DNA of 64,000 nucleotides, taken from positions 998 through 64,997 of the forward strand of contig DATMBN010000048.1 in assembly GCA_035559275.1 (NCBI GenBank). The letters are read 5' to 3'. The stretch comes from Burkholderiaceae bacterium (GTDB lineage: Bacteria > Pseudomonadota > Gammaproteobacteria > Burkholderiales > Burkholderiaceae_C). The notes beneath the pieces were generated by a model. That model was given only the letters and a program-made list of their open reading frames with translations. It was not told where the DNA came from and ran no database searches. Positions 37,871 to 54,516 of the stretch are shown here, piece after piece. The position numbers and the translations under genes are program-made. The first letter of the stretch is position 1; every line of letters starts with the position of its first letter.

Positions 37871-39301
37871 ATGCTCATCCCTGTAATTCTGTCCGGCGGC
37901 GCCGGCACACGCCTGTGGCCCGTCTCCCGCGAAGGCCACCCCAAGCCGTTCATGAAGCTGGCCGATGGCGAGAGTCTCCTGCTGAAGACCTACCGCCGCG
38001 CGCTCGACGTCTCGTCGCATCAGGAACTCATCACCGTCACCAACCGGGACTACTTCTTCATGAGCAAGGACGAGCTCTTGAAGCTGCGCCCCAAGGAGGA
38101 CAGGGGAGCGACATACCTCCTGGAACCGCAAGGGCGGAATACTGCGCCGGCCATCGCCCTTGCTGCGCTCTACGTCGAGGAGAAGTACGGTCCCGAGGCG
38201 CAGTTGCTCGTCCTTCCCGCCGATCACCTCATCCGTGACACGGGCGCGTTCTGTCAGGCCGTGCAAACAGCCTGCGCGCTCGCGCGCGACAACCGCCTCG
38301 TCACGTTCGGCATCCGGCCCACCGGGCCGGAAACCGGCTTCGGGTATATCGAGTGCGGCGAGCAGCAGGGGGAGGGGCGTGCCGTCGTACGCTTCGTGGA
38401 AAAGCCGAGCCTCGAAGTGGCCCGAGACTACGTCGCCAGTGGCAACTACCTCTGGAACTCGGGGATGTTCTGCTTCAAGGCCTCGGCGATCCTCCGTGAA
38501 CTGGAAGCGCTGGCGCCCGAGGTCTGGCAAGCGGCCCGCGGATGCTGGGAGAGTCTGCGCCGCGATGGCGCCAGCATCCCCAGCGCCATCGAGATCCCGG
38601 CGGACTTGTTCTGCAACGCGCCCGACATCTCCATCGACTACGCGGTGATGGAGCGTTCCCGCAACGTTTCGGTCGTGCCCAGCAGCTTCGACTGGAACGA
38701 CATCGGCTCGTGGAAAGCGATCAGCGGCCTGGTCGATCCGGACGACGACAACAACCGCGCGGTCGGCGACGCCGTGCTCGTCAACGCGAGGGACACCTTC
38801 GTGCATAGCGAGGACAGACTCGTCGCTGCGGTCGGCGTCCAGGGGCTCATGATCGTCGACACACCCGACGCTCTGCTTGTCGCCAGCGCCGATGCCGCGC
38901 AGGACGTCAAGCAAGTGGTCACCCACCTGAAGGCGCGCAACCATGATGCGTACAAGCTGCATCGCACGGTCGCGCGACCCTGGGGCACCTACACGGTTCT
39001 CGGAGAAGGGCCGCAATTCAAGATCAAGCGCATCGAGGTCCGGCCGGGGGCAAGCCTGAGCCTGCAGATGCACCATCACAGGAGCGAGCACTGGATCGTC
39101 GTTTCTGGCATGGCGAAGGTGGTCAACGGCGACCGGGAGATCTACCTGCGGACCAACGAGTCGACCTACATCCCGGCAGGCCACAAGCACCGCCTGGAGA
39201 ACCCCGGCAAGCTCGATCTCGTGCTCATCGAAGTGCAAAGCGGCGAGTATCTCGGAGAGGACGACATCGTCCGCTTCCAGGACGTGTACGGGCGGTGCTG
39301 A
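37871..39301 (+). CDS. manC: Mannose-1-phosphate guanylyltransferase / mannose-6-phosphate isomerase
   Basis: [28 protein letters not shown]-terminal cupin RPWG...[12 protein letters not shown]. Confidence 0.98.
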
Positions 39302-40659
39302 TGAGTCTGAGCTGTTTCAAGGCCTACGACATTCGGGGCCGGCTCGGCGAGGAGCTGAACGAAGAGATCGCATACCGTATCGGCCGGGCATATGCGGAGG
39401 TCGTGCGCCCCCGGACGGTGGTCCTCGGCGCCGACGTGCGGCCGACGAGTGAGGCCCTCAAGCTGGCGCTCGCCGACGGCCTCCTAGATTCAGGTGCCGA
39501 TGTCATCGATCTGGGGCTAACTGGAACGGAGGAAGTCTATTTCGCGACCTTCCATCTCCGCGTGGACGGTGGCATCGAGGTCACGGCTAGCCACAACCCC
39601 ATCGACTACAACGGCATGAAGCTGGTTCGTGGCGGCGCGCAGCCCATCAGCGGCGACAGCGGGCTGCGCGACATCCAGGCGCTGGCCGAAGGCAATCGAT
39701 TCAGTCCGCCCGTCCGGCGAGGGCGCCTCACGCACCGATCGGTGCTCGATGCCTACGTGGACCACCTGATCGGCTATGTGGACCTGGGAGCCTTCACACC
39801 CCTGCGTCTGGTCGTCAATGCCGGCAACGGGGCGGCAGGGCACGTCATCGACGCGCTGGAGTGCCGGATGGCACGAAGCGGAGTTCCGATCGAGTTCGTG
39901 AAGGTGCACCACGAGCCGGACGGTCGCTTTCCCAACGGGATTCCGAATCCCCTGCTTCCCGAAAACCGGGCGGCCACGGCCGACGCCGTCCGGGCGCACG
40001 GGGCGGACATGGGGATTGCATGGGACGGCGATTTCGATCGCTGCTTCCTGTTCGACGAGACCGGTCGCTTCATCGAGGGCTACTACATCGTGGGTTTGCT
40101 CGCCGCCGCCTTTCTGACGAAGCAGCCAGGACAGCGCATCGTGCACGACCCGCGGCTCACGTGGAACACAGTGGACATCGTCACCGGCAAGGGGGGCATT
40201 CCGGTACAGAGCAAGACGGGCCACGCCTTCATCAAGGAAAGAATGCGATCGGAGAACGCCATCTACGGGGGGGAGATGAGCGCGCACCACTACTTCAGGG
40301 ACTTCGCCTACTGCGACAGCGGAATGATCCCCTGGCTCCTGGTTGCGGAGCTCCTCTGCAGGAGCAGGCAGCCGATGTCTTCCCTGGTCGACGAACGCAT
40401 TGCCGCCTTCCCTTGCAGCGGCGAACTGAACTACAGGGTGGCCGACATCGGGCGGACGCTGGACCGCGTCATGGCACACTTCGCATCCGAGAATCCGGCC
40501 ATCGACCGCACCGACGGCATCAGCCTGGAGTTCGACGATTGGCGTTTCAACCTGCGAGGTTCCAACACGGAGCCGCTGCTGCGCCTGAACGTCGAGGCGC
40601 GGGGTGATGCCCAGGCCGTTGAACGGCGCGTGCGGCAAATCGAGCAACTGCTGGTCTGA
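39301..40659 (+). CDS. manB: Phosphomannomutase
   Basis: [33 protein letters not shown]. Confidence 0.98.
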
Positions 40660-40685: not shown

Positions 40686-41831
40686 ATGCAGCTTGTCACG
40701 ACTTCGAACGCGGGCCTACTCTCGCGCGTCGGCTCCTACCTGCGAACCCACCGCCTTTTCGTCCTGGTGGTGGTGGTGCCGACGATCCTGTCTGCCCTCT
40801 ACTATGGGCTGATCGCCTCGGACATCTACGTGTCCGAGTCGCGGTTCATCGTACGCAGCCCCCAACGCCAGTCGACGGGCGGGCTGAACGCGCTCCTACA
40901 AGGAGCCGGATTCTCCGGCTTCGCGCGCGCACCGGACGACGTCTATACCGTTCACGACTACATCCTCTCGCGCGATGCCCTCGCCCACTTGGACCAGCAA
41001 CTCGATCTGCGCGCATCCTTTTCGAGCCGCGACATCGACTTCCTGAGCCGTTTCCCCTCGCTGGACTTCGACGACAGCTTCGAAGCGCTCCATCGCTACT
41101 ACCAGAAGCGCGTGTCGGTGAACCTTGACACGCTGTCGTCCATCTCCACGCTCACCGTCACCGCCTTCTCCGCGGAACAGGCGCGGCGGATGAACGAATT
41201 GCTGCTCGAAGCCGCAGAACGCCTCGTCAACAAGCTGAACGAACGGGGGCGGCAGGATCTCATCCGCTTCGCCGCAGCCGAGGTCGCAGAGGCAGAGCGC
41301 AAGGCGAAAGCGGCGGCGCTCGCGCTGGCCTCCTACCGCAATCGCCAGGCCGTCGTCGATCCGGAGCGGCAGACCACCATACACCTGCAACAGATCTCCA
41401 AGTTGCAAGATGAACTCATCGCGACCAAGACGCAGCTGGCGCAGGTGCGCGCCTTCGCGCCTCAGAACCCGCAGCTGCCCTCGTTGCAACTGAAGGCCAA
41501 GACCTTGCAGGCCGAGATCGACGCGGAGCTTGCAAGGATCGCGGGCGGAGGCGCGTCGTTGACCAACAAGGCGGCCGAGTTCCAGCGGCTGGCGCTGGAG
41601 CGCGAGTTCGCCGACCGTCAGCTGGCGGCGGCGCTGGTCTCGCTCGAGCAAGCGCGCAACGAGGCACAGCGCAAGCAGCTGTACCTGGAGCGCATCGTGC
41701 AGCCCAACCTGCCCGATGTCGCCACCGAGCCTCGCCGGCTGCGTTCCTTCCTGTCCACGGTGGTGTTGGGCCTGGTCGTCTGGGGCATCCTGAGCATGCT
41801 CATCGCGGGCGTGCGTGAGCATCAGGACTGA
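40686..41831 (+). CDS. kpsE: Capsule export inner-membrane PCP protein (KpsE/BexC/CtrB/WcbD family)
   Basis: YYGLIASDIYVSESRF, DYILSRDA, YLERIVQPNLPD...EPRR, two TM segments. Confidence 0.93.
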   Translation: MQLVTTSNAGLLSRVGSYLRTHRLFVLVVVVPTILSALYYGLIASDIYVSESRFIVRSPQRQSTGGLNALLQGAGFSGFARAPDDVYTVHDYILSRDALAHLDQQLDLRASFSSRDIDFLSRFPSLDFDDSFEALHRYYQKRVSVNLDTLSSISTLTVTAFSAEQARRMNELLLEAAERLVNKLNERGRQDLIRFAAAEVAEAERKAKAAALALASYRNRQAVVDPERQTTIHLQQISKLQDELIATKTQLAQVRAFAPQNPQLPSLQLKAKTLQAEIDAELARIAGGGASLTNKAAEFQRLALEREFADRQLAAALVSLEQARNEAQRKQLYLERIVQPNLPDVATEPRRLRSFLSTVVLGLVVWGILSMLIAGVREHQD

Positions 41832-41842
41832 GCGAGGTAGCC

Positions 41843-42631
41843 ATGAGCGGCGAATCGTTGCTGCGATCCTGGGCTGTGCAGCGGCGGGTCATCGGCGCGC
41901 TGTTGATGCGCGAGATCCTCACGCGCTACGGGCGGCACAACATCGGATTCCTATGGCTCTTCGTGGAGCCGATGCTGTTCACGCTGGGTGTTACCGCCTT
42001 GTGGACGATGGCGAAGGCCACCCACGGCTCCGACCTGCCGATCGTCGCGTTCGCCATCACCGGGTATTCCTCCGTGCTGTTGTGGCGGAACATGCCATCG
42101 CGCTGCATCAGCGCGATCACGCCGAACCTCGCCTTGATGTACCACCGGAACGTGAAGGTCATGGACGTGTTCGCGGCGCGCCTGCTGCTGGAGGCGGCAG
42201 GCGCGACCATATCGTTCATGACGCTGGCCTCGTTCTTTACCTTCATCGGGTGGATGGAACCGCCCGAGAACATCGCCATGGTGATGGTGGGCTGGGTGAT
42301 GCTCGCTTGGTTCGGCTCGGCACTGGCGATCCTGCTCGGTTCCCTCAGCGAGCGTTCCGAGATCGTGGACAAGCTCTGGCACCCGACCTCCTACATCCTG
42401 TTCCCGTTGTCGGGAGCCGCCTTTCTTGTCGACGCCTTGCCGAAGGCCGCGCAGGAATTCGTGCTTCTGCTGCCCATGGTGCACGGTGTCGAGTACCTGC
42501 GGGAAGGCTACTTCGGCCAGTCCATCCGGGCTCATCATGACCTGACTTACATGGGCACCATCTGCCTCGGCCTCACCTTGCTGGGCCTGGCCATGATGCG
42601 GCGCGTCAGCCGGGAGGTGATGCCCGAATGA
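41843..42631 (+). CDS. kpsM: Capsule ABC transporter permease (KpsM/BexB/CtrC)
   Basis: LMREILTRYGRHNIGFLWLFVEP, PMVHGVEYLREGYF. Confidence 0.95.
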   Translation: MSGESLLRSWAVQRRVIGALLMREILTRYGRHNIGFLWLFVEPMLFTLGVTALWTMAKATHGSDLPIVAFAITGYSSVLLWRNMPSRCISAITPNLALMYHRNVKVMDVFAARLLLEAAGATISFMTLASFFTFIGWMEPPENIAMVMVGWVMLAWFGSALAILLGSLSERSEIVDKLWHPTSYILFPLSGAAFLVDALPKAAQEFVLLLPMVHGVEYLREGYFGQSIRAHHDLTYMGTICLGLTLLGLAMMRRVSREVMPE

Positions 42632-43281
42632 TCCGGCTCGATGGCATCCACAAGCGCTACCACACCCGCCACGGTTCGGTGCACGTGCTCAACGACGTCA
42701 ACCTGGTCGTGAGGCCCGGCGAGAAGGTGGGGGTGCTCGGCCGCAACGGCGCGGGAAAGTCGACCCTGATCCGCCTCATCAGCGGCGCCGAGCGACCGAG
42801 CGAAGGCCGCATCGAGCGCAAGATGAGCGTGTCGTGGCCGCTGGCCTTTGGCGGGGCCTTCCAGACGGCCCTGACGGGTCTGGACAACCTGCGGTTCATC
42901 TGCCGGATCTATGGCACCTCCGCGGAGGACAAGATCCCATACGTGCAGGAGTTCTCGGAACTGGGTCGCTACCTGCGCGAGCCGGTGCGCACCTACTCCG
43001 CCGGCATGAGGGCGCGGCTCGCCTTTGCCATCTCGATGGTGGTGGAGTTCGACTGCTTCCTGATCGACGAGATCGTTGCCGTCGGCGACGCACGATTTCA
43101 CGAGAAATGCCGGGTCGAACTGTTCGAGAAGCGCGGCGACAGGGCGATGATTCTCGTGTCTCACGACCCCGGCTATGTGCGGGCGCACTGCGACCGGGCG
43201 TCGGTGCTCGTGGCGGGCAGGCTGCACAACTTCGACAGCGTCGAAGAAGCCTATGCCTTCTACCAGGAGCACTCGGCATGA
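42628..43281 (+). CDS. kpsT: Capsule ABC transporter ATPase (KpsT/BexA/CtrD), no C-terminal CBM
   Basis: GRNGAGKST, YSAGMRARLAF, LIDE; only 217 aa. Confidence 0.96.
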   Translation: MIRLDGIHKRYHTRHGSVHVLNDVNLVVRPGEKVGVLGRNGAGKSTLIRLISGAERPSEGRIERKMSVSWPLAFGGAFQTALTGLDNLRFICRIYGTSAEDKIPYVQEFSELGRYLREPVRTYSAGMRARLAFAISMVVEFDCFLIDEIVAVGDARFHEKCRVELFEKRGDRAMILVSHDPGYVRAHCDRASVLVAGRLHNFDSVEEAYAFYQEHSA

Positions 43282-43348
43282 ACCAGCATCGCTTCGCCGA
43301 GCATACGCTCCCGCCCCAGCCCGCTGCCCCTTTCGCGGGAGGCGGTTC

Positions 43349-44617
43349 ATGATGAGCATGTTCGACAAGGCATGGGTCGCCCCTCTGACGCTGCTTCCCG
43401 TTCCCTGGGGGCGGCAATGGGTCGGCCGCAGGAGCGCAGGCGGAGGGGGAAAGGTCGCCCCGCGCGCCGAACGCCAGTTGCTGATCGATGTCTCCGTCAT
43501 CGTTCGCGAGGATGCGCGTACGGGCATCCAGCGTGTCGTGCGGGCGTTGCTGATGCAACTGCTGGAGCACCCCCCTGCGGGCTGGACCATACGCCTGGTC
43601 CGCGCGACCAAGTACCGCGACTACCGTCTCGCACCGGCCCTGAACGGGCTGCCAGAACAATGCGGTGCGGGCGCCCCGCTCGAGGTCAGGCCCGGCGACC
43701 TCTTCCTCGGTCTGGATCTCGCTGCGCACCTCGTGCCGCGGCACTTCGGCCAGTTGGCGCGATGGAAGAAGCAGGGCGTCAACTTCTATTTCATGGTCTA
43801 CGACCTGCTGCCGCTGTTGCAGCCGCAATGGTTCAACCCTCGCACGCAGCGTCACTTTGCGCGGTGGCTGCACAGCGTCGCCCTGCTGGCCGACGGTGCC
43901 ATCTGCATCTCCCGCGCGGTGAGGGACGAACTGGAGCAGGAACTGGCCGGGCGCTACCACCTGCCGAAGCACAGCATCGCGCTGCATCACATCCATCTGG
44001 GTGCGGACCTGCATACCAGCGCACCGAGCCGAGGTCTGCCGCACGCCTTCGATGTCTGGCTCGACGACCTCACGCAGCGACCGACCGTCCTGATGGTCGG
44101 CACGCTCGAACCTCGGAAGGGTCACGCCCAGGCATTGGGTGCTTTTGAACTGTTATGGGGTCAGGGGCACGACGTCAACCTGGTCATCGCCGGCAAGCCG
44201 GGGTGGAAGGTGGACGGGCTGTTGGCCTCACTCCGAGGACATCCCGAACTGGGCAAACGTCTGCACTGGCTGGAGCAGCCTTCGGACGAAACCCTGGACG
44301 CGCTGTACCGGCGAACGACCGGCGTGTTGATGGCGTCGGAGGCGGAAGGTTTCGGCCTTCCGCTGGTCGAGGCCGCAAGCTACGGCAAGCCGGTCTTGGC
44401 TCGCGACACGCCCGTATTCCGTGAAGTAGGCGCGAACGCCGCGCACTATTTCAGCGGCCGCCAGCCGCGCGATCTCGCCACGGCCCTTGCAGAATGGCTG
44501 GGATTGGGCGCACGGCAGCCCTGCAAACACGGTGTCATCCCCTGGCAGACGTGGGCGGACAGTGCCCGCCAGTTGGTGTCCTGCCTCCCGGTCGACATCC
44601 GCGAAAGATCACAATGA
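43349..44617 (+). CDS. Glycosyltransferase family 4
   Basis: TGIQRVV, VGTLEPRKG, SEAEGFGLPLVEA; start inferred from the GGAGG SD. Confidence 0.9.
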   Translation: MMSMFDKAWVAPLTLLPVPWGRQWVGRRSAGGGGKVAPRAERQLLIDVSVIVREDARTGIQRVVRALLMQLLEHPPAGWTIRLVRATKYRDYRLAPALNGLPEQCGAGAPLEVRPGDLFLGLDLAAHLVPRHFGQLARWKKQGVNFYFMVYDLLPLLQPQWFNPRTQRHFARWLHSVALLADGAICISRAVRDELEQELAGRYHLPKHSIALHHIHLGADLHTSAPSRGLPHAFDVWLDDLTQRPTVLMVGTLEPRKGHAQALGAFELLWGQGHDVNLVIAGKPGWKVDGLLASLRGHPELGKRLHWLEQPSDETLDALYRRTTGVLMASEAEGFGLPLVEAASYGKPVLARDTPVFREVGANAAHYFSGRQPRDLATALAEWLGLGARQPCKHGVIPWQTWADSARQLVSCLPVDIRERSQ

Positions 44618-45786
44618 GTTCCTTGCCCCCGTTCCTCTTGATGCGACTTTCCGCCCCCCTGTTGGTCTTCTCGGCCCTGGCCGGGTGCGCCAATTTCGGT
44701 GTTCCCAACAGTGGGCCCACGCGGAATGAAGTCGCCGAAGCGACGCGAGAGACCAGCGGCATACAGATCGTCGATGTGACAGACAACGTCGCGCGGCAGT
44801 TGTTGGCCCAGCGCCGCCAGGACGCCTTTGCCGAATCCCTCGGCTCACCGACCGTGCTGCCTGGCACGGTGGCCGCTGGCGACGTCCTCGAAGTCAGCGT
44901 GTGGGAGGCTCCCCCCGCGACCCTTTTTGGCACTACGCTCGTGGAAGCGCGGGCCACGGCCGCCCAGGGCAGCCGGCCTACCACGTTGCCCGAGCAGGTG
45001 GTCAGCAGCGAGGGGACCATCAACGTGCCGTTCGCGGGGGCCGTGCCCGTCGCCGGACGGACACTGCCGCAGATCGAAGCCGAGATCGCCCGCCGCCTGG
45101 CAGGCAAGGCGAATCAGCCGCAAGTCCTCGTACGACTGACCCGCAATTCGACCGCCAACGTCACGGTCGTGGGCGAGGTCGGTCAAAGCACCCGACTGCC
45201 CCTGACACCGAAGGGGGAGCGCTTGCTCGATGCGCTGGCCGCCGCCGGAGGAGTGAGGCAGCCCGTCAACAAGGTGACGGTGCAGGTCACCCGGGGCCAG
45301 AACGTCTACTCGATGCCCCTTGAAGCCGTGATTCGCGATCCCCGGCAGAACATCGTGCTCCAGCCCGGCGACGTGGTGACCGCGCTCTTCCAGCCCCTCA
45401 GCTTCACGGCGCTGGGCGCCACGGGGCGAAACGAGGAAATCAACTTCGAAGCCGGCGGCATCACCTTGGCTCAGGCACTGGCACGAGCGGGGGGCCTCAA
45501 CGACATGCGTGCCGACTCGCAGGGCGTGTTCATCTTTCGCCTGGAATCGGCCAACGCCTTGGCTTGGCAAACCCCGCCGCGCACCACGCCTGATGGCCGA
45601 GTGCCGGTCGTCTATCGGCTCGACCTCAAGGATCCGGGCAGCTTCTTCGTGGCGCAGAGCTTTCCCATCAGCAACAAGGACATCGTGTATGTCTCCAACG
45701 CGCCCGCAGCTGAACTGCAGAAGTTCCTCAACGTGATCACGTCGGTCGTGTATCCGGCCATCGGCATCATCAATCTGACCCGTTGA
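44614..45786 (+). CDS. Outer-membrane polysaccharide export lipoprotein (OPX; CtrA/BexD/WcbC family)
   Basis: Lipobox LAGC, PNSGP, GDVLEVSVWE, GTINVPFAG. Confidence 0.93.
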   Translation: MSSLPPFLLMRLSAPLLVFSALAGCANFGVPNSGPTRNEVAEATRETSGIQIVDVTDNVARQLLAQRRQDAFAESLGSPTVLPGTVAAGDVLEVSVWEAPPATLFGTTLVEARATAAQGSRPTTLPEQVVSSEGTINVPFAGAVPVAGRTLPQIEAEIARRLAGKANQPQVLVRLTRNSTANVTVVGEVGQSTRLPLTPKGERLLDALAAAGGVRQPVNKVTVQVTRGQNVYSMPLEAVIRDPRQNIVLQPGDVVTALFQPLSFTALGATGRNEEINFEAGGITLAQALARAGGLNDMRADSQGVFIFRLESANALAWQTPPRTTPDGRVPVVYRLDLKDPGSFFVAQSFPISNKDIVYVSNAPAAELQKFLNVITSVVYPAIGIINLTR

Positions 45787-45808
45787 GGATGCAAGACCAG
45801 GACGAGCC

Positions 45809-48271
45809 GTGAGGACACTGTTCTACCTGCATCCGGCGGTTCTCCCTGGGGGACCCGAGTTCAACTCGGGCTGGACGAAGCTGTTCGTGGACATGCTGTC
45901 CACGCTGGAAAGCACATTCCCTGGCGACAGTTTGCTGGTTACGGGCTCCAGGTTCGGAAGCATTGCGCAGGAAGCGGGCGTGGGCGACAGGGTGCGGCTT
46001 CTCAGCGAACACGACCTCCTCGCCAAGGTGAGAAGTGCTTCGCCTGCCGCGGCGGTGCCTGGAGTGTTCGCGCGGCTCGCAAGGACGGAGAAAAGCGCTG
46101 CGCACCCGGCGCTCGCGATCCTGGCCGGCGAGACGCGCCGCGCCTGCGGCGATTTCCAGCCGGACTTGATCGTTTCGTTCAGCATGCCCTGCTTCTTCCT
46201 CAGGGATGTATGGCCGGACGCGGTTTGCATGACCGCCGAAGCTGGCGCGTTCTCGAGATCGCCCTTTCCGTTCAGCCTGTTCTTCGACCACCAAGGGATG
46301 TACCGCGAGTCGGGCGCAGCGCGCTATCGGCTTGAACACTACCGCGCGGCCGACCGCGAGGAAATGCTTTCGGTAGCCCGGGAGTTTCGCGAGAGGAGTG
46401 GCGCACTGCTACAGGCCCAGGATCCCTTTTCGAGCTTCGGCTTTCGTCATCGATACGAGCGCCTGGTGCTGTTGCCGCTGCAGGTCTCTGGCTGGTATTC
46501 GTTCGACGAACAGGCCCCGTACGGCACGCAGTTCGAGTACCTGCATGACGCGCTTAGTGGCCTGCCGGAGGAGATCGGGGTGCTGGTGTCCGAGTACATA
46601 CAGTGGGGTCCGGTCTTGCTCGACGAAGGGTCGAACCGAAACCTCCAGTACCTTCGTGATCGCTTTCCGAATCTGATCTTCCACAGGAGGTTCAGGCAAT
46701 ACGCGTCGCCCTCGCAGTACCTCGTGCATCACGTGGACGGTGTCTGGACTCAATCCTCCAACCTGGGATATCAAGCGCTGCTGTGGGGAAAGCGGTTAGG
46801 CACGACCTCGCAGACCCACCTGCGTAACGTCGCCCACGACCTTTCCCTGCGTTCCTTCGCCCGCAACGTTCTGAGTGGGGAAAAGCCAGGAAATCACGAA
46901 GAGTATCTCGCCTGGTACCTTCAGCACTACGCAGTGCCACAGCCTCTCCTTCGCGACCCCGCCCTCTTGCGCGACTACCTCCAGCGGCGGGTTGCAGCCG
47001 CCCGAACCGAGGCGCAACCCTCGCCAGCCTCCTTCGTTCCGGTGGCTCCAGCGGGAGCCATGAAGGATGCGTGGATGGGCGCGTTCGCATCGGAGCCTGG
47101 CGGCGCGGAACGATGGCATGTGCCGAGCAGCCGTGCGTTGGCGCGGTTCGCACAGTCGGAGGCCGCGCTCGCGCACGCCCAGGCTCTTACGTTGGCGATC
47201 AGGAGCCAGCCCGCGAAGCCGCGCGCTCCCCGTTACATCCTCCTCAACGACACTCGTTCGATCGACGGAATGTTGCACCTTGGGTGCAACATCGTGACGG
47301 AGCATATTCACCAGCGGATGCGGTCGCTGGGATTGACCCTGCACGGGAGCGCCAACACCGGGGACGAGTGCCGGGCGCTGATGGAGGATCCGCTCTTTCC
47401 CGACGTGTGCGTGGTGGTGCTCAATGGTGAAGGAAGCGTCCACCATGACAGCCAACGCATGGTCGAACTTTTCGACTTCTGTGGGGCGATGCGGAACAGG
47501 GGCGTTCCATGTGTCCTGATCAATTCGGTCTGGCACGAAAACACCTCGGTCCTTGGCAGCCGCCTTGGATGCTTCGAGCTCGTAGCGGTAAGGGAGTCCA
47601 TCAGCCTGGAAGCGGCCCGGATGTGGCGCACCGACGCACGCGTGGTGCCGGACCTCTCCTTCGCCGCCTTCCGTGCGGCCACCGCTGGATTCGACGTATC
47701 GCCTGCGGCTTGGCCGCCTTCGCGCTATGCGGTCATCGACAGTGTCTACCGGGATCGCACGGAGGCGCTGGTGGACTTCGCCGATTTTCACGAAGTCCCG
47801 ATGTATTTGATGGGTCGCCTCCATGCAGACCTGCTGCTGAACTCGGTCCACTGGAGCCAGCATCTGCACGGCGAAGGGATTTTCCCGCGCATCCTCAAGA
47901 GTTCGACCGAGTTGGGATCCGCGCAGGCGTGCGTCACGGGGCGTTTCCATGGATTGGCAGCCGGCCTCGTGGCGGGGGTACCGACCGTCGCACTCGGCTC
48001 CAACACACCCAAAATCGAGGGGGTTCTCGGAGACATCGGTATCTCCGAGGCAAGCCTGCTCGACGAAGATTGGTGCCGGATGAGCAACCCGGAGCGGGCA
48101 GAGGCCGTCGAGCGGTTGATCGACCGATGGAACACCAGGACGCGTGCCGCCGTTGTGTCGTACATCGACAAGGCTGTCTCGGAGGTGGACGACCTCTTCC
48201 GCTCCATTGGACAGATGCTGGGGCGCCAGCAGCTTGACGCCTCGTGGCAGCCGGGGGCGATCTCGAAATGA
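45809..48271 (+). CDS. Fusion of a KpsC/KpsS-like (capsule synthesis) domain and a polysaccharide pyruvyltransferase
   Basis: N-half EAGAFSRS...SLFFDHQGMY, LPLQV, SSNLGYQALLWGK; C-half (from ~47231) NDT...HLGC, NGEGSVHH, VRESIS, VPDLSF, TGRFHG. Confidence 0.75.
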   Translation: MRTLFYLHPAVLPGGPEFNSGWTKLFVDMLSTLESTFPGDSLLVTGSRFGSIAQEAGVGDRVRLLSEHDLLAKVRSASPAAAVPGVFARLARTEKSAAHPALAILAGETRRACGDFQPDLIVSFSMPCFFLRDVWPDAVCMTAEAGAFSRSPFPFSLFFDHQGMYRESGAARYRLEHYRAADREEMLSVAREFRERSGALLQAQDPFSSFGFRHRYERLVLLPLQVSGWYSFDEQAPYGTQFEYLHDALSGLPEEIGVLVSEYIQWGPVLLDEGSNRNLQYLRDRFPNLIFHRRFRQYASPSQYLVHHVDGVWTQSSNLGYQALLWGKRLGTTSQTHLRNVAHDLSLRSFARNVLSGEKPGNHEEYLAWYLQHYAVPQPLLRDPALLRDYLQRRVAAARTEAQPSPASFVPVAPAGAMKDAWMGAFASEPGGAERWHVPSSRALARFAQSEAALAHAQALTLAIRSQPAKPRAPRYILLNDTRSIDGMLHLGCNIVTEHIHQRMRSLGLTLHGSANTGDECRALMEDPLFPDVCVVVLNGEGSVHHDSQRMVELFDFCGAMRNRGVPCVLINSVWHENTSVLGSRLGCFELVAVRESISLEAARMWRTDARVVPDLSFAAFRAATAGFDVSPAAWPPSRYAVIDSVYRDRTEALVDFADFHEVPMYLMGRLHADLLLNSVHWSQHLHGEGIFPRILKSSTELGSAQACVTGRFHGLAAGLVAGVPTVALGSNTPKIEGVLGDIGISEASLLDEDWCRMSNPERAEAVERLIDRWNTRTRAAVVSYIDKAVSEVDDLFRSIGQMLGRQQLDASWQPGAISK

Positions 48272-51200
48272 AAATCTCCTACGCACAGAACTTTGAGGAC
48301 GTTCTGCTCGCGCGAGCGCTAAAACACGTCGAGAAAGGCTTCTATATCGACGTGGGTGCGCAGCACCCTGTCGTCGACTCGGTCAGCATGGCGTTCTATG
48401 AAATGGGATGGCGCGGATTGCACATCGAGCCTGTCCCTCAGTACGCCGCCCTGCTACGGGAGCACCGCCCCGACGAGACAGTGTTGCAGGTCGTCGTGGC
48501 GGCCAACGGGGGGGCCCGCACCCTGTACGAGTTCCCTGATACCGGTCTGTCCACCATGGACGCCGAAATCGCGGAGCGACACCGTAAGGCCGGCTATCGC
48601 GCCAACGAGATCACTGTGGCGGCCCTGCCTCTCGCATCCATCCTTGACTCCATCGGTGAGAAGGAGGTGCATTGGCTCAAGATAGATGTAGAGGGTGCAG
48701 AAGAAGAGGTGCTGAGGAGCTGGGCGCCATCAACGGTTCGACCATGGATTGTTGTCGTTGAAAGCACATTACCCCTGAGACCCGAGCAGAGTCATGAGCA
48801 GTGGGAGCCCGTTCTCCAGGAGTACGGCTATGTGTTTACGTTCTTTGACGGACTCAATCGCTACTATGTCGCGGAGGGGCACCCGGAATTACGGACGGCG
48901 CTCAGCACTCCCGCCAATGTCTTTGATGGGTTCCAGCTGAGCGGGACTTCAAGTTGGTCGCGGTGCGCAGACATCGAGACCCGATTTCGCGAGCAACTGA
49001 GCGATCTCGAAAAGGCCCATCAAACTCATCTGGAAAGCGTCCACGCTGAGAGAGCCGCGCTTCAACAGCTGCTCGACGAGCAGGCATCACGTTCCCAGTG
49101 GCAGGATGAGGAGATCTCCACGCTAAGAAGCGAACTCGCGAAGCTGGCAACGGATCTCCGGGCAGGGCACGAACACCAGCAAGCGTTGGAGTCGGAACTG
49201 GCGCGCGCGCGCTCAGAGCGGCTTCGTGCCGAGCAGGAGGCCAAGGAGCGCAGCGCCACACTAGAAGAGCAACTGAGCCGCACCTTAGAAGCGCTCCGCT
49301 CTCAGACCAAGGCCCAGAGTTACGCTTTGGCGCTGACCCGACGACTCGTCGCGAATCAGCAGGCGCAGCTTTCCGAGATGGCGCGGGCGCACCTTCAACG
49401 CGAGCAAGACATGCGTAGACGGTTCGAGGCGCAACTCGACGAACTCACTAGACGCTTGAACACCCAGTCGGCGCAGTCAGAAGCCGTACTGTCTGCTCTG
49501 AGGGCACAAGCGGAAGCGCACAACTTCGCTCAGCAGCAGATCGACGCCCGGCTGGCTTGCTTGCACGAGCGAATCGAAGCACAACGCTCTGCGCGGACGG
49601 GCTCCCTATTGGGGCGCTTCTTGCGAGGGACTGGAAGCGGCTCTTCCCGCTCCGAGAACTGTATAGAGGCTGCGGGCGAAGTTCGTTTTCCTCCGGCCTC
49701 CGCAGTCTCTGACGCCGTGCCTCCAGCTCTCTCTCGGCCGCCCCAACTCCGAACGACCAACTCTTCTGAGCTGGCCTCTGCAGCGGAAGGAACATCGGGT
49801 GAAATCGAAGCTGTCGCAAATGAAGAGCCGGATATGCGACGTGGAACGGAAAATATGCTCATGGGTACTCGAGAAGAGTTTTTGACCTCAGCCTACACTC
49901 AACTTCTCGGCAGGGAACCTGATCCGGAAGGCTGGCGCTACTACTTAGATCGTCTGAACTCGGGGCACTCGCGGGTGTCGGTGGTAAGCCAGCTGCTCAG
50001 ATCACCCGAATACCGGTCTCGTCGTTTTCCAGTCCACTCGGCCCCAATATCCGTCTACCTCGAAAAGTTGAGCGACTTGCCGTTGGTAGGTCACCTGTTT
50101 GCAGCGATCAATCTGGTGATCTACGGGACCGGCCGCTGGACTGCATGTTCGTCCGGCGTTAGCACCGCACCTCAAAGCCCCCACGAAAACTATCATCTCG
50201 ATGATCTCCTGGCCCTGAGTGACAAGGCTTTCCTGGAAGAGGTCTACAAGCTCTTCCTTCGGCGAGAAGTCGACGGGCCTGGCGCGGCGCACTACGAAAG
50301 CAGGCTCAAAGAGGTGGGGCGTGTGCCGGTTCTTCTGGATATCTATTTTTCCTCAGAAGCACGGAAGCTAGGCAACAGCTACCAGATCCAGGGAGCGCGC
50401 GCGGCGCAATTTCTTCGGAAACTATTCTTCCCTAAAAGGTCCCGGCGGAACACGCCGAACAACGCGCCCCCGCTTAAAGCTGGGCGATTGGTCGGCCCAT
50501 CTTCGGCGAAGGAGTGGGAAAGAGAAAACCTAAAACCGACGGCTGCAGTCCCTTGGCGCGTGGAACGGAGCGGTGAAACCAGAACGAAGAACGTTCTGCT
50601 TCTCACCACCTACCCGATTCGGACTCCACGCCACGGAGGACAGCATAGGGCTGCGAACATCGCCGAGCACTATACGAGCGCAGGGTTTACTGTCTATCCA
50701 GCAGGGGTGCTGGGAAGCGATTCATATACGCTAGAACCTGGGTTCGACTTATTTCCTACCCATCAACGCCTAGCTCACTACATCGAGCAGCCCTTCTTGA
50801 TGGAAGATTGGGCGATCGGCCAGATGTATGCCGGCGATACTCATGCCTTTGAAAGGCTATGCCACCTTATCCCTGTAAAGCCAGACATCATTCATGTTGA
50901 GCAACCCTGGTTAGTTGCTTTCGCCAACAAGTTCAACCAAGAACATTGCCACCGACAAGCCAAGCTAATATACGGCTCCCAAAACATCGAGTCCACGTTA
51001 AAGGAGGGCATCGTCCGGCAGTATCGGGGCACCCAAGCAGCGGAAGATTCCCGGCATCGCGTTCATCTCACAGAACTGTCCGCCATTTCTGTATCTGATG
51101 CGGTTGTCTGCGTTTCCGAGCATGACGCTCGATGGATACAAGAACGAAAAGCCGCCCGGGTTGTGCTAGCACCGAACGGTGTGGCGGACAGCAGCCCCGA

Positions 51201-51789
51201 TTTTTTCGCGATTCGCAAAGCAGCAGAAATCGCAGGAAACCACCAATACGCTCTATATTGCGCCAGCGCGCATCCACCTAATATTTCTGGGTTTCTTGAG
51301 CTTCTTGGCGGAGGTTTAGGATCGCTTTCACCCCGCCAGAAGATCATCATTGTCGGCAGTGCTGGACCTCACATTGCCAACTCCGAAACAGCAAGAAAAT
51401 CTCGGAGCCTATCAAATGCACTGATAGTCGCTGGCGAACAGGATTTGTCTATACTTTCCGCCCTCATCAGTGGAGCGCACTGTATGTTGCTACCCATAAC
51501 ACTCGGAGGCGGAACCAATCTAAAAACAGCGGAGGCGCTGTGGGCAGGCAAGCACATCGTCGCCACCTCGAAGGCTCTCCGAGGATTTGAATCGTATATT
51601 GATGCCCCAGGCGTTCGCATTGCGGACGACGCACCATCGTACAAAAGAGCGCTATTCGATGCGATGCAGGAAGCGCCTCTTTGCCTAGACGAGAGCGAGC
51701 GCCACCGGCGCCAGGCGTTGTTGTGGTCGCACGCCTTAGCTCCGCTGCGAGAACTTGCACGCGCACTAATCGAGCAAAAGGTGGACTGA
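48268..51789 (+). CDS. FkbM methyltransferase - coiled coil - 2x DUF4214-like - GT4-like glycosyltransferase fusion
   Basis: SYAQNFED, FYIDVGAQHP, LKIDVEGAE; heptad-rich segment at residues ~236-443; two AY-x-x-LLGREPD-like repeats; C-terminal GGGTNLKTAEAL. Confidence 0.88.
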   Translation: MKISYAQNFEDVLLARALKHVEKGFYIDVGAQHPVVDSVSMAFYEMGWRGLHIEPVPQYAALLREHRPDETVLQVVVAANGGARTLYEFPDTGLSTMDAEIAERHRKAGYRANEITVAALPLASILDSIGEKEVHWLKIDVEGAEEEVLRSWAPSTVRPWIVVVESTLPLRPEQSHEQWEPVLQEYGYVFTFFDGLNRYYVAEGHPELRTALSTPANVFDGFQLSGTSSWSRCADIETRFREQLSDLEKAHQTHLESVHAERAALQQLLDEQASRSQWQDEEISTLRSELAKLATDLRAGHEHQQALESELARARSERLRAEQEAKERSATLEEQLSRTLEALRSQTKAQSYALALTRRLVANQQAQLSEMARAHLQREQDMRRRFEAQLDELTRRLNTQSAQSEAVLSALRAQAEAHNFAQQQIDARLACLHERIEAQRSARTGSLLGRFLRGTGSGSSRSENCIEAAGEVRFPPASAVSDAVPPALSRPPQLRTTNSSELASAAEGTSGEIEAVANEEPDMRRGTENMLMGTREEFLTSAYTQLLGREPDPEGWRYYLDRLNSGHSRVSVVSQLLRSPEYRSRRFPVHSAPISVYLEKLSDLPLVGHLFAAINLVIYGTGRWTACSSGVSTAPQSPHENYHLDDLLALSDKAFLEEVYKLFLRREVDGPGAAHYESRLKEVGRVPVLLDIYFSSEARKLGNSYQIQGARAAQFLRKLFFPKRSRRNTPNNAPPLKAGRLVGPSSAKEWERENLKPTAAVPWRVERSGETRTKNVLLLTTYPIRTPRHGGQHRAANIAEHYTSAGFTVYPAGVLGSDSYTLEPGFDLFPTHQRLAHYIEQPFLMEDWAIGQMYAGDTHAFERLCHLIPVKPDIIHVEQPWLVAFANKFNQEHCHRQAKLIYGSQNIESTLKEGIVRQYRGTQAAEDSRHRVHLTELSAISVSDAVVCVSEHDARWIQERKAARVVLAPNGVADSSPDFFAIRKAAEIAGNHQYALYCASAHPPNISGFLELLGGGLGSLSPRQKIIIVGSAGPHIANSETARKSRSLSNALIVAGEQDLSILSALISGAHCMLLPITLGGGTNLKTAEALWAGKHIVATSKALRGFESYIDAPGVRIADDAPSYKRALFDAMQEAPLCLDESERHRRQALLWSHALAPLRELARALIEQKVD

Positions 51790-51790
51790 C

Positions 51791-53362
51791 ATGCCGACCA
51801 TTTGGTTCAATGTTACTAGCTCGCGTGACTGGAGGCGACCGGCCGTAGGCGTGATCCGGGTAGAGCGATCACTTATGACCGCGATCAGAAGGATTACCGA
51901 CCATCGCACCTTTAGGCTGTGCGCCTGGATGGGAAATGGCTTTGTTGAGGTACATGAGGTGGAAGGCGGTTTTGTACCGTCTCATCCGCCTCAGCCCGCG
52001 CCGCTTAGTCCTGGGGATGCGCTGATTTCCGTTGGGCTCGACTGGGATTCTCCTTATGTGTTTCATTTTCAGACTTTGCACGCGCGAGGAATTCGCGTCG
52101 TTACCTGCTGCTACGATTTGATACCAGTACTATTTCCCCAGTACTGCGTAGGAGAGGTCGCGCAACATTTCACAGACTACTTTATAAGTCTCGCCTGGAG
52201 TTCTAGTCTCATTCTATGCATTTCAAAGAGAAGTGAACAGGACTTGCGGGCCTTGTTGGAACGAGTGGGCGCACCAATCCCTCGAACCGCCGTCATTGAG
52301 CTTGGGGACAATGTACCTTCGGGGGATGAAGCCCTTTCGGAGGAAATTAGAACCGTGCTGGAGAAGCCGTACATCTTATTCGTCTCCACCATCGAGCGAA
52401 GAAAGAACCACGAAGTCCTCTACAGGGCATACCACTTGCTCGCCAGAACTGGTCGCATCGACAGAATGCCTAAACTGGTGTTTGTTGGAATGCCGGGCTG
52501 GGGGGTTGGCGACTTGATGAAAGACATTGAGCTCGACCCCCTCACCAGGGGCATGATTGTCCAGCTCAATCAGGTAAACGACAGTGAGCTCCGGGCTCTG
52601 TACGACAATGCGCAGTTTTGTGTGTACCCGTCGCTTTACGAGGGATGGGGATTGCCGGTGGGAGAGGCCCTGGCACTGGGAAAAGCCGTTGTCGCCTCGG
52701 ATCGAGGTTCTCTCCCAGAGGTTGGAGGAGATCTCGTTCAATATGTTGATCCCTGGGACCCGGAAGCCTGGGCGGAGACGATGTACGGACTGGCGACGAA
52801 CACTTCCTTGCTATCCACCCTGACCGATCGTGTCCGAGAGAATTACGTGCCCCGCAAGTGGGAGACGTGCGGCGAGGTCGTTTTGCGCGAACTCAGCAAC
52901 CTCCCTGACACCCCTAACACACTCCGGCTTTATCCGGGCTATCAGATGAGCACTCAGGTAGGCGTTCATCATGGGCCGCGCATTGTGGGCTTCGAAGAGG
53001 GTGGATTTCTCATGTTCGGCCCGCATTTGAGCCTACAGCCCAACAGGTATCGTGTAAAAATCTGGCATGAACCGCTCGCGGATGCAGTCGAGACGGCGTT
53101 TTGGGTCGATTTCGTGTCTGATCGCGGGTCGCGCTCCTACTATCGTCAAGAACTGAGCCTTAGTCCCGCACAGCAACATTGTAAAGAGGAAATTCTCTGC
53201 ACCTTCGAGATCGAAGTGCCCTTACCCGTCGAAGATTTCGAGATCCGCTGCTGGCTGACTAAGGGCAAGCTCTGCCTTTGCCGCGTAGAGGTGGACGCAA
53301 TCGGCGGGGTTGGCTTAGTAGACGCGGCCCAAGGAAAGCGAGTGACGATTGCGACTGATTGA
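51791..53362 (+). CDS. Glycosyltransferase family 4 with an extra C-terminal domain
   Basis: VSTIERRKNH and PSLYEGWGLPVGEAL; low GC. Confidence 0.88.
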   Translation: MPTIWFNVTSSRDWRRPAVGVIRVERSLMTAIRRITDHRTFRLCAWMGNGFVEVHEVEGGFVPSHPPQPAPLSPGDALISVGLDWDSPYVFHFQTLHARGIRVVTCCYDLIPVLFPQYCVGEVAQHFTDYFISLAWSSSLILCISKRSEQDLRALLERVGAPIPRTAVIELGDNVPSGDEALSEEIRTVLEKPYILFVSTIERRKNHEVLYRAYHLLARTGRIDRMPKLVFVGMPGWGVGDLMKDIELDPLTRGMIVQLNQVNDSELRALYDNAQFCVYPSLYEGWGLPVGEALALGKAVVASDRGSLPEVGGDLVQYVDPWDPEAWAETMYGLATNTSLLSTLTDRVRENYVPRKWETCGEVVLRELSNLPDTPNTLRLYPGYQMSTQVGVHHGPRIVGFEEGGFLMFGPHLSLQPNRYRVKIWHEPLADAVETAFWVDFVSDRGSRSYYRQELSLSPAQQHCKEEILCTFEIEVPLPVEDFEIRCWLTKGKLCLCRVEVDAIGGVGLVDAAQGKRVTIATD

Positions 53363-53420: not shown

Positions 53421-54515
<1,095 letters not shown>

Positions 54516-54516
54516 C

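Follow-up and report, generated by a model that had tools for sequence, protein, structure and literature searches.

What sets the length of a capsule chain when the transporter that exports it has no module for reading the chain end? In O-antigen pathways, the length problem is solved by a capping enzyme mounted on a coiled-coil ruler together with a transporter carbohydrate-binding module (CBM) that reads the cap; the characterised terminators all carry such a ruler, and all terminated O-polysaccharide systems have a Wzt CBM (PMC11231755). For Kps capsules, the presumption is that synthesis together with export determines chain length, a matter said to need study (PMC12220298, a 2025 review), no terminating residue exists in the capsule pathway of Haemophilus influenzae b (PMC11231755), and a literature search with the reviews of Whitfield et al. 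2020 and Williams et al. 2017 outside its coverage found no published test of a ruler in a Kps capsule. The question is raised here by one gene in a 64,000-nt stretch of a Burkholderiaceae bacterium genome (GCA_035559275.1, contig DATMBN010000048.1, positions 998 to 64,997), hereafter the window. This target gene (48268..51789; coordinates are those of the window, plus strand) encodes a predicted 1,173-aa protein in which an FkbM-type methyltransferase domain is followed by a coiled coil, two DUF4214 repeats and a GT-B glycosyltransferase (GT) domain, and it lies in a Kps-type, group 2/3-like capsule locus. On balance, we lean towards the protein being a chain-terminating O-methyltransferase carried on a length-setting stalk and fused to a polymerase module, working on a Kps chassis that would lack a cap-reading checkpoint.

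Modular architecture of the putative terminator

The open reading frame (ORF) starts at an ATG at 48268 that overlaps the stop of the upstream gene, and its own stop ends at 51789, 2 nt before the next GT4 gene begins. An in-frame GTG is also present at 48244; homologues start at the ATG. The ATGA shared with the upstream gene and the 2-nt gap to the downstream one make the target translationally coupled to both its neighbours. The fusion is not an assembly artefact, a possibility ruled out by the same fused gene on an independent Logan contig (L001), which encodes a 1,172-aa protein 96% identical to the target.

The N-terminal module (residues 1–230, 48268..48957) is an S-adenosylmethionine-dependent methyltransferase domain of the FkbM type. 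It matches PF05050 with 100.3 bits against a cut-off of 22.7, at residues 36–198 in GTG numbering and over profile positions 1–173 of 173, and TIGR01444 (FkbM) with 58 bits against 37.7. All 58 columns that are invariant in a 42-sequence FkbM alignment are kept in the target. The AlphaFold2 model of the domain, with a predicted local distance difference test (pLDDT) score of ~90, was matched by Foldseek to the mycobacterial sugar O-methyltransferase MeT1 (6g80). A sequence search of the chains in the PDB returned nothing useful for the FkbM and GT domains, and fold search alone was informative. A second, distant FkbM gene (28% identity, in a 768-aa frame without DUF4214) lies elsewhere in the genome (G000:C82:26777-27232, L003).

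The FkbM module is followed by the stalk (residues 231–443 in ATG numbering, 48958..49596), which DSSP assigns in the AlphaFold2 model as a single unbroken helix. Its 213 residues include no proline and one glycine, 68% are Ala, Leu, Arg, Glu or Gln, and at 0.148 nm per residue they would span ~31 nm. A heptad score that tolerates register shifts, computed by dynamic programming, lies at z=5.3 over composition-matched shuffles, with 0 of 500 shuffles reaching it. The 3.5-residue Fourier periodicity is not significant over the whole stalk and the heptads are therefore irregular, so that the region is best described as an irregular coiled coil. No tandem DNA repeats building the coil were found. 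In 64 of 121 family members (P0002-P0121), the coil ends in the motif W[RK]x[TS]xP[LIVM]R, at positions 390–844, and the motif may be a membrane or partner contact; the target carries a degenerate version, GSLLGRFLRG.

Beyond the stalk, the model runs through a linker, a confident DUF4214 repeat and a weaker second repeat to a GT-B domain of moderate confidence. The linker (residues 444–526, 49597..49845) is rich in Pro, Ser and Ala and predicted to be disordered, with no secondary structure and a pLDDT of 24–33. PF13946 (DUF4214) is matched with 61 bits against 23.2, in two stretches. Repeat 1 (residues 527–602, 49846..50073) forms a small helical bundle with a pLDDT of 85 when modeled alone, while repeat 2 (residues about 644–700, 50197..50367) is weaker, at 26 bits and with low AlphaFold2 confidence. 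No further DUF4214 was found in the target genome.

The C-terminal module (residues 774–1173, 50587..51786) is a divergent GT-B, GT4-like glycosyltransferase domain. Its matches to GT4-family Pfam models fall under the gathering thresholds (25.3 vs. 28.5 and 24.3 vs. 27), while Foldseek pairs it with the GT4 enzymes PimA, BshA, WaaG and MshA at probability 1.0, with low TM-scores. Since its own motifs, HGGQxR, EQPWL, HPPN and GGGTNLKTAEAL, are kept in stand-alone orthologues of 44–48% identity, the domain looks functional. This architecture agrees closely with a sequence-only reading of the window, which had proposed an FkbM domain, a coiled coil at residues ~236–443 of ~30 nm, DUF4214-like repeats at 49861–50016 and 50218–50367, matching the PF13946 coordinates, and a GT4-like domain.

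One methyltransferase subfamily in two transporter contexts

A search of 5.8 billion proteins returned >800 relatives of 650–1930 aa, nearly all combining FkbM with DUF4214 and some fused to GT2 or GT4 domains, and the target is one more member of this large family. In Ralstonia pickettii, Comamonas aquatica and a metagenome-assembled genome (MAG), the cassette occurs in kps-type loci with a KpsT of 216–218 aa, an outer membrane polysaccharide export (OPX) protein, gmd and rmd; genes for KpsE and Capsule_synth proteins and manC each occur in the majority of these loci. In Ralstonia (L004) and Comamonas (L005), the terminator is followed by a separate protein with two GT4 modules, a split reminiscent of WbdD and WbdA.

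We fetched 80 loci from named genomes and typed their neighbours; across 83 such loci, two transporter contexts emerge. Twenty-one loci have a KpsT-like ATPase without a tail, alongside KpsE, KpsD, KpsC and KpsS; DUF4214 is present in 18 of them, the median first proline-free span is 257 aa and the median protein 860 aa. Another 33 loci, in Pseudomonas, Mesorhizobium, Advenella, Hydrogenophaga, Lysobacter and others, have a Wzt with a tail of 169–193 aa, assigned as Wzt_C by Pfam in 2 and by homology in 31; none has DUF4214, and the corresponding medians are 89 aa and about 430 aa. The FkbM proteins of this second context measure about 320–550 aa, and a gmd or related dehydratase accompanies most of them, with an rmd-like match in some. 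When two Legionellaceae loci described below are counted, DUF4214 occurs in 20 of 23 Kps-type loci vs. 0 of 33 (Fisher p=2e-12, with phylogeny not corrected for). The coils of the Kps context are long and highly variable, and even loci sharing an orthologous GT set have coils of about 150, 213 and 404–432 aa.

The two contexts nevertheless draw on the same enzyme. The target FkbM domain is 52–64% identical to FkbM genes adjoining Wzt-CBM transporters and is thus a member of their subfamily. A maximum-likelihood tree of FkbM shows the contexts clustered yet interleaved, and supported branches force at least 3–5 switches; because of this interleaving, one catalytic module would serve both pathways. 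The tree suggests that the FkbM module has moved repeatedly between O-antigen-type and capsule-type chassis, being found on the latter with a longer stalk and the additional DUF4214. Since the cap is read by the Wzt CBM in characterised O-antigen systems, the occurrence of this subfamily beside that domain implies a terminal epitope. Of the proposal that the target is an O-antigen-style terminator/ruler fusion, the part that survives is the N-to-C order, as in WbbB and O7 ORF6, and the FkbM subfamily shared with Wzt-CBM loci. The idea of a unique, one-off hybrid does not, given that FkbM, a long coil and DUF4214 together form a widespread Kps-linked cassette.

A transporter without a CBM and a candidate docking module

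The target locus encodes a KpsT of 217 aa (42628..43281) that matches ABC_tran only, with no C-terminal domain, as the sequence-only reading had it. Wzt_C (PF14524) was found nowhere in the 99.95%-complete target genome, which contains a single KpsM/KpsT pair, and it is wholly absent from 12 of 24 other carrier genomes. A Wzt CBM encoded elsewhere and reading the cap is thereby ruled out for the target genome and those 12, and the claim of a CBM-less pathway stands. In Burkholderia, two 678-aa frames (G076:C1:1083844-1084179 and G082:C13:205387-205686) contain a weak Wzt_C-like domain (30–35 bits); they lie about 15–17 kb from the capsule cassette and are not the KpsT of the locus.

The further claim that export proceeds without quality control is not established. 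Nearly all the best PDB matches of the DUF4214 model are phycobilisome linker domains, with a TM-score of about 0.6, an rmsd of 1.5–2 Å over 50–58 columns and probabilities of at most 0.99, the E-values being 0.3–1 for so short a domain. As modeled, DUF4214 thus resembles a fold of protein-docking type and not a β-sandwich CBM, and it probably docks the target protein to partner proteins. Because it tracks exactly with CBM-less transporters and has a docking-type fold, the protein could be coupled to export in some other way.

Two Legionellaceae loci, each a full kps locus, carry possibly related repeats on the transporter itself. The KpsT proteins of Fluoribacter gormanii (L016:7955-9001, minus strand) and Legionella qingyii (L021:7951-8997, minus strand) end in a 128-aa tail, in the position that the CBM occupies in Wzt; it contains two DUF4214-like repeats (ILGREPExE ... 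SSEEF) and is not homologous to Wzt_C. The likeness to DUF4214 is weakly supported, a lead with an hhalign probability of 64% and an E-value of 6.5e-5, and Pfam calls no DUF4214 there. Only three protein clusters with such a KpsT were found among the 5.8 billion proteins. A speculative and rather unlikely extension would make DUF4214 a docking module akin to phycobilisome linkers, which takes the place of the Wzt CBM checkpoint in Kps pathways and physically couples the terminator/ruler to KpsMT, the hand-over of capped chains being licensed by protein contact and not by reading of the cap. DUF4214 would then act in trans in the target and most Kps loci, and in cis on some Legionellaceae KpsT proteins.

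A recent fusion in an exchanged segment of the capsule locus

The four loci closest in synteny (Undibacterium, Burkholderia lata, Burkholderia sp. and a Sphingomonas MAG) encode the terminator (about 690–860 aa) and the GT (395–424 aa, 44–48% identical to the target domain) in adjacent separate genes, which points to the GT fusion as a recent, local and lineage-specific event. This GT subfamily is found next to FkbM in Kps loci as well as in Wzt-CBM loci (L020, L030, L067 and L013), and orthologues of the GT4 downstream of the target (42–48% identity) directly follow the GT gene in the same loci. In L050 and L052, the subfamily forms the C terminus of multi-GT proteins, fused to ordinary GT4 modules.

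Comparison of window 42157–53189 with the L001 contig reveals a mosaic, with DNA identities of 97.5% over the target and next GT4, 88% over the OPX/820-aa region and 75% over kpsM, kpsT and the adjoining GT4. The target gene is absent from 14 of 14 congeners, 10 of which have KpsS and KpsC. This pattern indicates that the target belongs to a serotype-specific cassette recently exchanged between different kps backgrounds. Because of the mosaic identity and the absence from congeners, we assign it to region 2, the serotype-specific and horizontally exchanged part of a kps locus typical of the genus.

The cassette is also poor in G+C: the G+C content of the window, ~70%, falls to 55–65% across about 36–54 kb. 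This stretch and the genes beyond it make up a single polysaccharide locus, all on the plus strand, in the order manC, manB, kpsE, kpsM, kpsT, GT4, OPX/kpsD-like gene, 820-aa protein gene and target, followed by GT4, gmd, Rmd-like reductase gene, two GT4s, a single-domain kpsC-like gene and kpsS. Its Kps type, already recognised in the sequence-only reading, is confirmed by KpsM/KpsT, KpsE, the OPX protein KpsD and KpsS, with the proviso that the NCBIfam equivalog scores of the Kps transporter components fall under their strict cut-offs. KpsE, of the polysaccharide co-polymerase PCP-3 type (40686..41831), matches TIGR01010 (BexC/CtrB/KpsE) at 5e-117 with 391 bits against 437.5; the ABC-2 permease KpsM (41843..42631, PF01061) has NF050053 (KpsM) as its top NCBIfam match, at 104 bits and under the cut-off; and KpsS matches NF050054 at 4e-135 with 451 bits against 600. 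The kpsD-like OPX gene (44494..45786, start uncertain) encodes Poly_export and SLBB domains.

The remaining genes would supply and assemble the sugar. Pfam identifies manC and manB (37871..40659), for GDP-mannose supply. Further along, gmd (TIGR01472, 477 bits, over its cut-off) is paired with a gene for a 296-aa Rmd-like short-chain dehydrogenase/reductase (together 53481..55407, GDP_Man_Dehyd and Epimerase Pfam families), for GDP-6-deoxyhexose supply; mannose, a GDP-6-deoxyhexose such as D-rhamnose, or both are the probable building blocks of the capsule. Besides the target, GT4 enzymes are encoded next to kpsT (43355..44617, start approximate; Glycos_transf_1, with the same neighbour in L001, L004, L005 and L006), directly after the target (51791..53362, 523 aa; Glycos_transf_1, a conserved partner of the target in relatives) and by two more genes found by Pfam (55397..58077). 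The kpsC-like gene and kpsS (58091..60357), for β-Kdo (3-deoxy-D-manno-octulosonic acid) linker enzymes, match PF05159 with 137 and 312 bits, the only two Capsule_synth matches in the genome. The kpsC-like gene (58091–59083), whose frame overlaps that of the GT4 before it, has one Capsule_synth domain; KpsC is a two-domain protein in congeners, in open frames of 683–832 aa, and the Kdo-linker chemistry at the target locus may differ.

Directly upstream of the target lies a gene for an 820-aa protein (45809..48271), the C-terminal half of which is a polysaccharide pyruvyl transferase domain (PF04230, 41 bits) and whose stop overlaps the target ATG. Its N-terminal half shows weak local KpsC-like motifs, with similarity to the KpsC-like protein of the locus at E about 0.003. 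Relative to the near-identical Logan contig, the gene contains ~530 extra nt (46774–47303) whose flanks align to overlapping parts of the relative, which looks like an internal duplication. At the other end of the locus, the end of kpsS is overlapped by a 586-aa ORF (59688–61448) that encodes a PhyH (phytanoyl-CoA dioxygenase-like) domain.

How the protein might set chain length

From family knowledge, KpsS and the KpsC-like enzyme would build a β-Kdo linker on lipid, on which the kpsT-adjacent GT4, the target GT domain and the three other GT4s would extend the chain in the cytoplasm. An oligomeric coiled coil would keep the FkbM module ~31 nm from the GT end, with the flexible linker adding to the distance; the module would O-methylate the non-reducing end once the chain is long enough to reach it, whereupon elongation would stop. 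KpsMT, KpsE and KpsD would then export the chain, a step presumably not gated by a CBM because KpsT has no cap-reading module. Most likely, the DUF4214 repeats, specific to the Kps-linked versions, would dock the stalk to the polymerase or the export complex. The methyl acceptor and its terminal specificity, the ruler function, the sugar composition, the oligomeric state and the DUF4214 partner are all elements that we infer.

Several points weigh against a terminating ruler. The terminal position of the methyl group and the block to elongation are presumed, as is the oligomeric state of the stalk, whose heptad periodicity is irregular, and AlphaFold2 confidence in the coil and GT domain is moderate only (mean pLDDT 59.6). 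The GT domain not only scores under the gathering thresholds but has no first Glu of the GT4 EX7E motif (GGGTNLKTAE), a replacement conserved in its orthologues. The single-domain KpsC leaves even the anchor chemistry uncertain. Moreover, export of uncapped chains could go ahead if no CBM checks them, and the cap might then not control length. Finally, the methyltransferases of the Pseudomonas aeruginosa common polysaccharide antigen (a D-rhamnan) locus, when overexpressed, do not behave like WbdD (PMC3560663), which also favours the view that FkbM is a decorating enzyme, methylating internal residues of each repeat unit stoichiometrically while the coil merely oligomerises.

That FkbM-family enzymes are general O-methyltransferases is compatible with decoration, and MeT1 itself methylates a defined mannoside position and does not cap growth at a non-reducing end. 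We nonetheless find decoration improbable since the same subfamily stands beside Wzt-CBM transporters in 33 loci and since a position 30 nm away from the polymerase would be a strange one for a decorating enzyme. A scaffold in place of a ruler is a stronger contender, and although we judge it clearly less likely than not to be the whole answer, it has an appreciable chance. The coil and DUF4214 would tether the methyltransferase and GT to KpsMT/KpsE or KpsC/S and organise an assembly line, with the balance of synthesis and export, from which length is presumed to follow (PMC12220298), setting the length. The restriction of DUF4214 to loci with a CBM-less KpsT, its likeness to phycobilisome linker docking modules and the DUF4214-like repeats at the C terminus of the Legionellaceae KpsT all fit such a tether, but a tether needs no 100–500 residues of variable rigid helix, and the coil is a ruler in every characterised protein of this layout (PMC11231755). 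The scaffold is in any case compatible with, and not exclusive of, a ruler. It is most doubtful that the protein is a two-step capping unit, in which the GT domain would act as a terminal or adaptor transferase adding one special residue that FkbM then methylates. The GT subfamily does have motifs of its own and travels with the FkbM gene in both contexts, but a 31-nm spacer would be counter-productive if both steps act together, and the domain, joined as it is to ordinary GT4 modules in L050 and L052, resembles part of a polymerase.

If the stalk of the putative terminator does measure chains, it would be a true ruler and a genetic handle on capsule thickness, in that changing the coil would change the capsule. 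The target makes the question of capsule chain length testable, and directly so since Ralstonia, Burkholderia, Cupriavidus and Comamonas, which can be cultured, carry the cassette; its membership of a large family and a passing mention of comparable proteins in E. coli (below) temper the interest.

Comparison with known systems

The closest parallels in layout are ORF6 of Klebsiella pneumoniae O7, a fusion of a methyltransferase-kinase, a coil and two GT2 domains, and WbbB of serotype O12, which like the target join an N-terminal terminator, an extended coiled coil and a C-terminal GT in one polypeptide; in both Klebsiella proteins the coil is a proven or accepted ruler (PMC11231755). Shared too are the extra GT modules from neighbouring genes and the ABC-transporter-dependent assembly. 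Unlike these proteins, the target has an FkbM terminator with no kinase and no β-Kdo GT99, a GT of GT-B/GT4-like and not GT2 type, DUF4214 between coil and GT, and an export chassis of KpsMTED plus KpsS and a KpsC-like protein, with an ATPase lacking a CBM. D-rhamnans capped with 3-O-methyl-D-rhamnose exist in nature, according to the title of an article cited in PMC9445017.

With the WbdD and WbdA proteins of E. coli O9a/O8 (Klebsiella O3/O5), the target would share a methyl-type cap, a coiled-coil ruler, GT4-type modules and a mannose-derived homopolymer. The catalytic domains of WbdD are not FkbM, however, and it lacks DUF4214; in O9a, a Wzt CBM reads the cap, and the O9a polymer is linked to undecaprenyl diphosphate and ligated to lipid A-core. 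Outside Gram-negative bacteria, WsaE of the Geobacillus stearothermophilus S-layer glycan fuses a methyltransferase to rhamnosyltransferase domains and caps a rhamnan of an ABC-transporter pathway in a Gram-positive organism, not a Kps capsule; we know of no long coiled coil or DUF4214 in it.

Comparable in genomic setting are putative methyltransferases with coiled coils from the group 3 capsule clusters of E. coli. A 2026 paper (PMC13171606) gives them a passing mention and treats variation in coil length as not critical, with no mechanism offered; the searched portion of its supplementary files contains no FkbM or DUF4214 terms. A tblastn search of plasmids, directed at the group 3B plasmid clusters of E. 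coli, found no E. coli homologue of the target FkbM domain, only alpha-proteobacterial and other FkbM genes. One example in a supplementary table of that paper, gene 5 of K114, encodes 857 aa with a PF13578 methyltransferase domain and a coil at 258–748. The target and these proteins have in common a methyltransferase followed by a variable coil of several hundred residues in a Kps-type cluster, and differ in the methyltransferase family, PF13578 there vs. FkbM (PF05050) here; if the stalk of the target is a true ruler, this would also explain the coil-length polymorphism of the E. coli group 3 capsule clusters.

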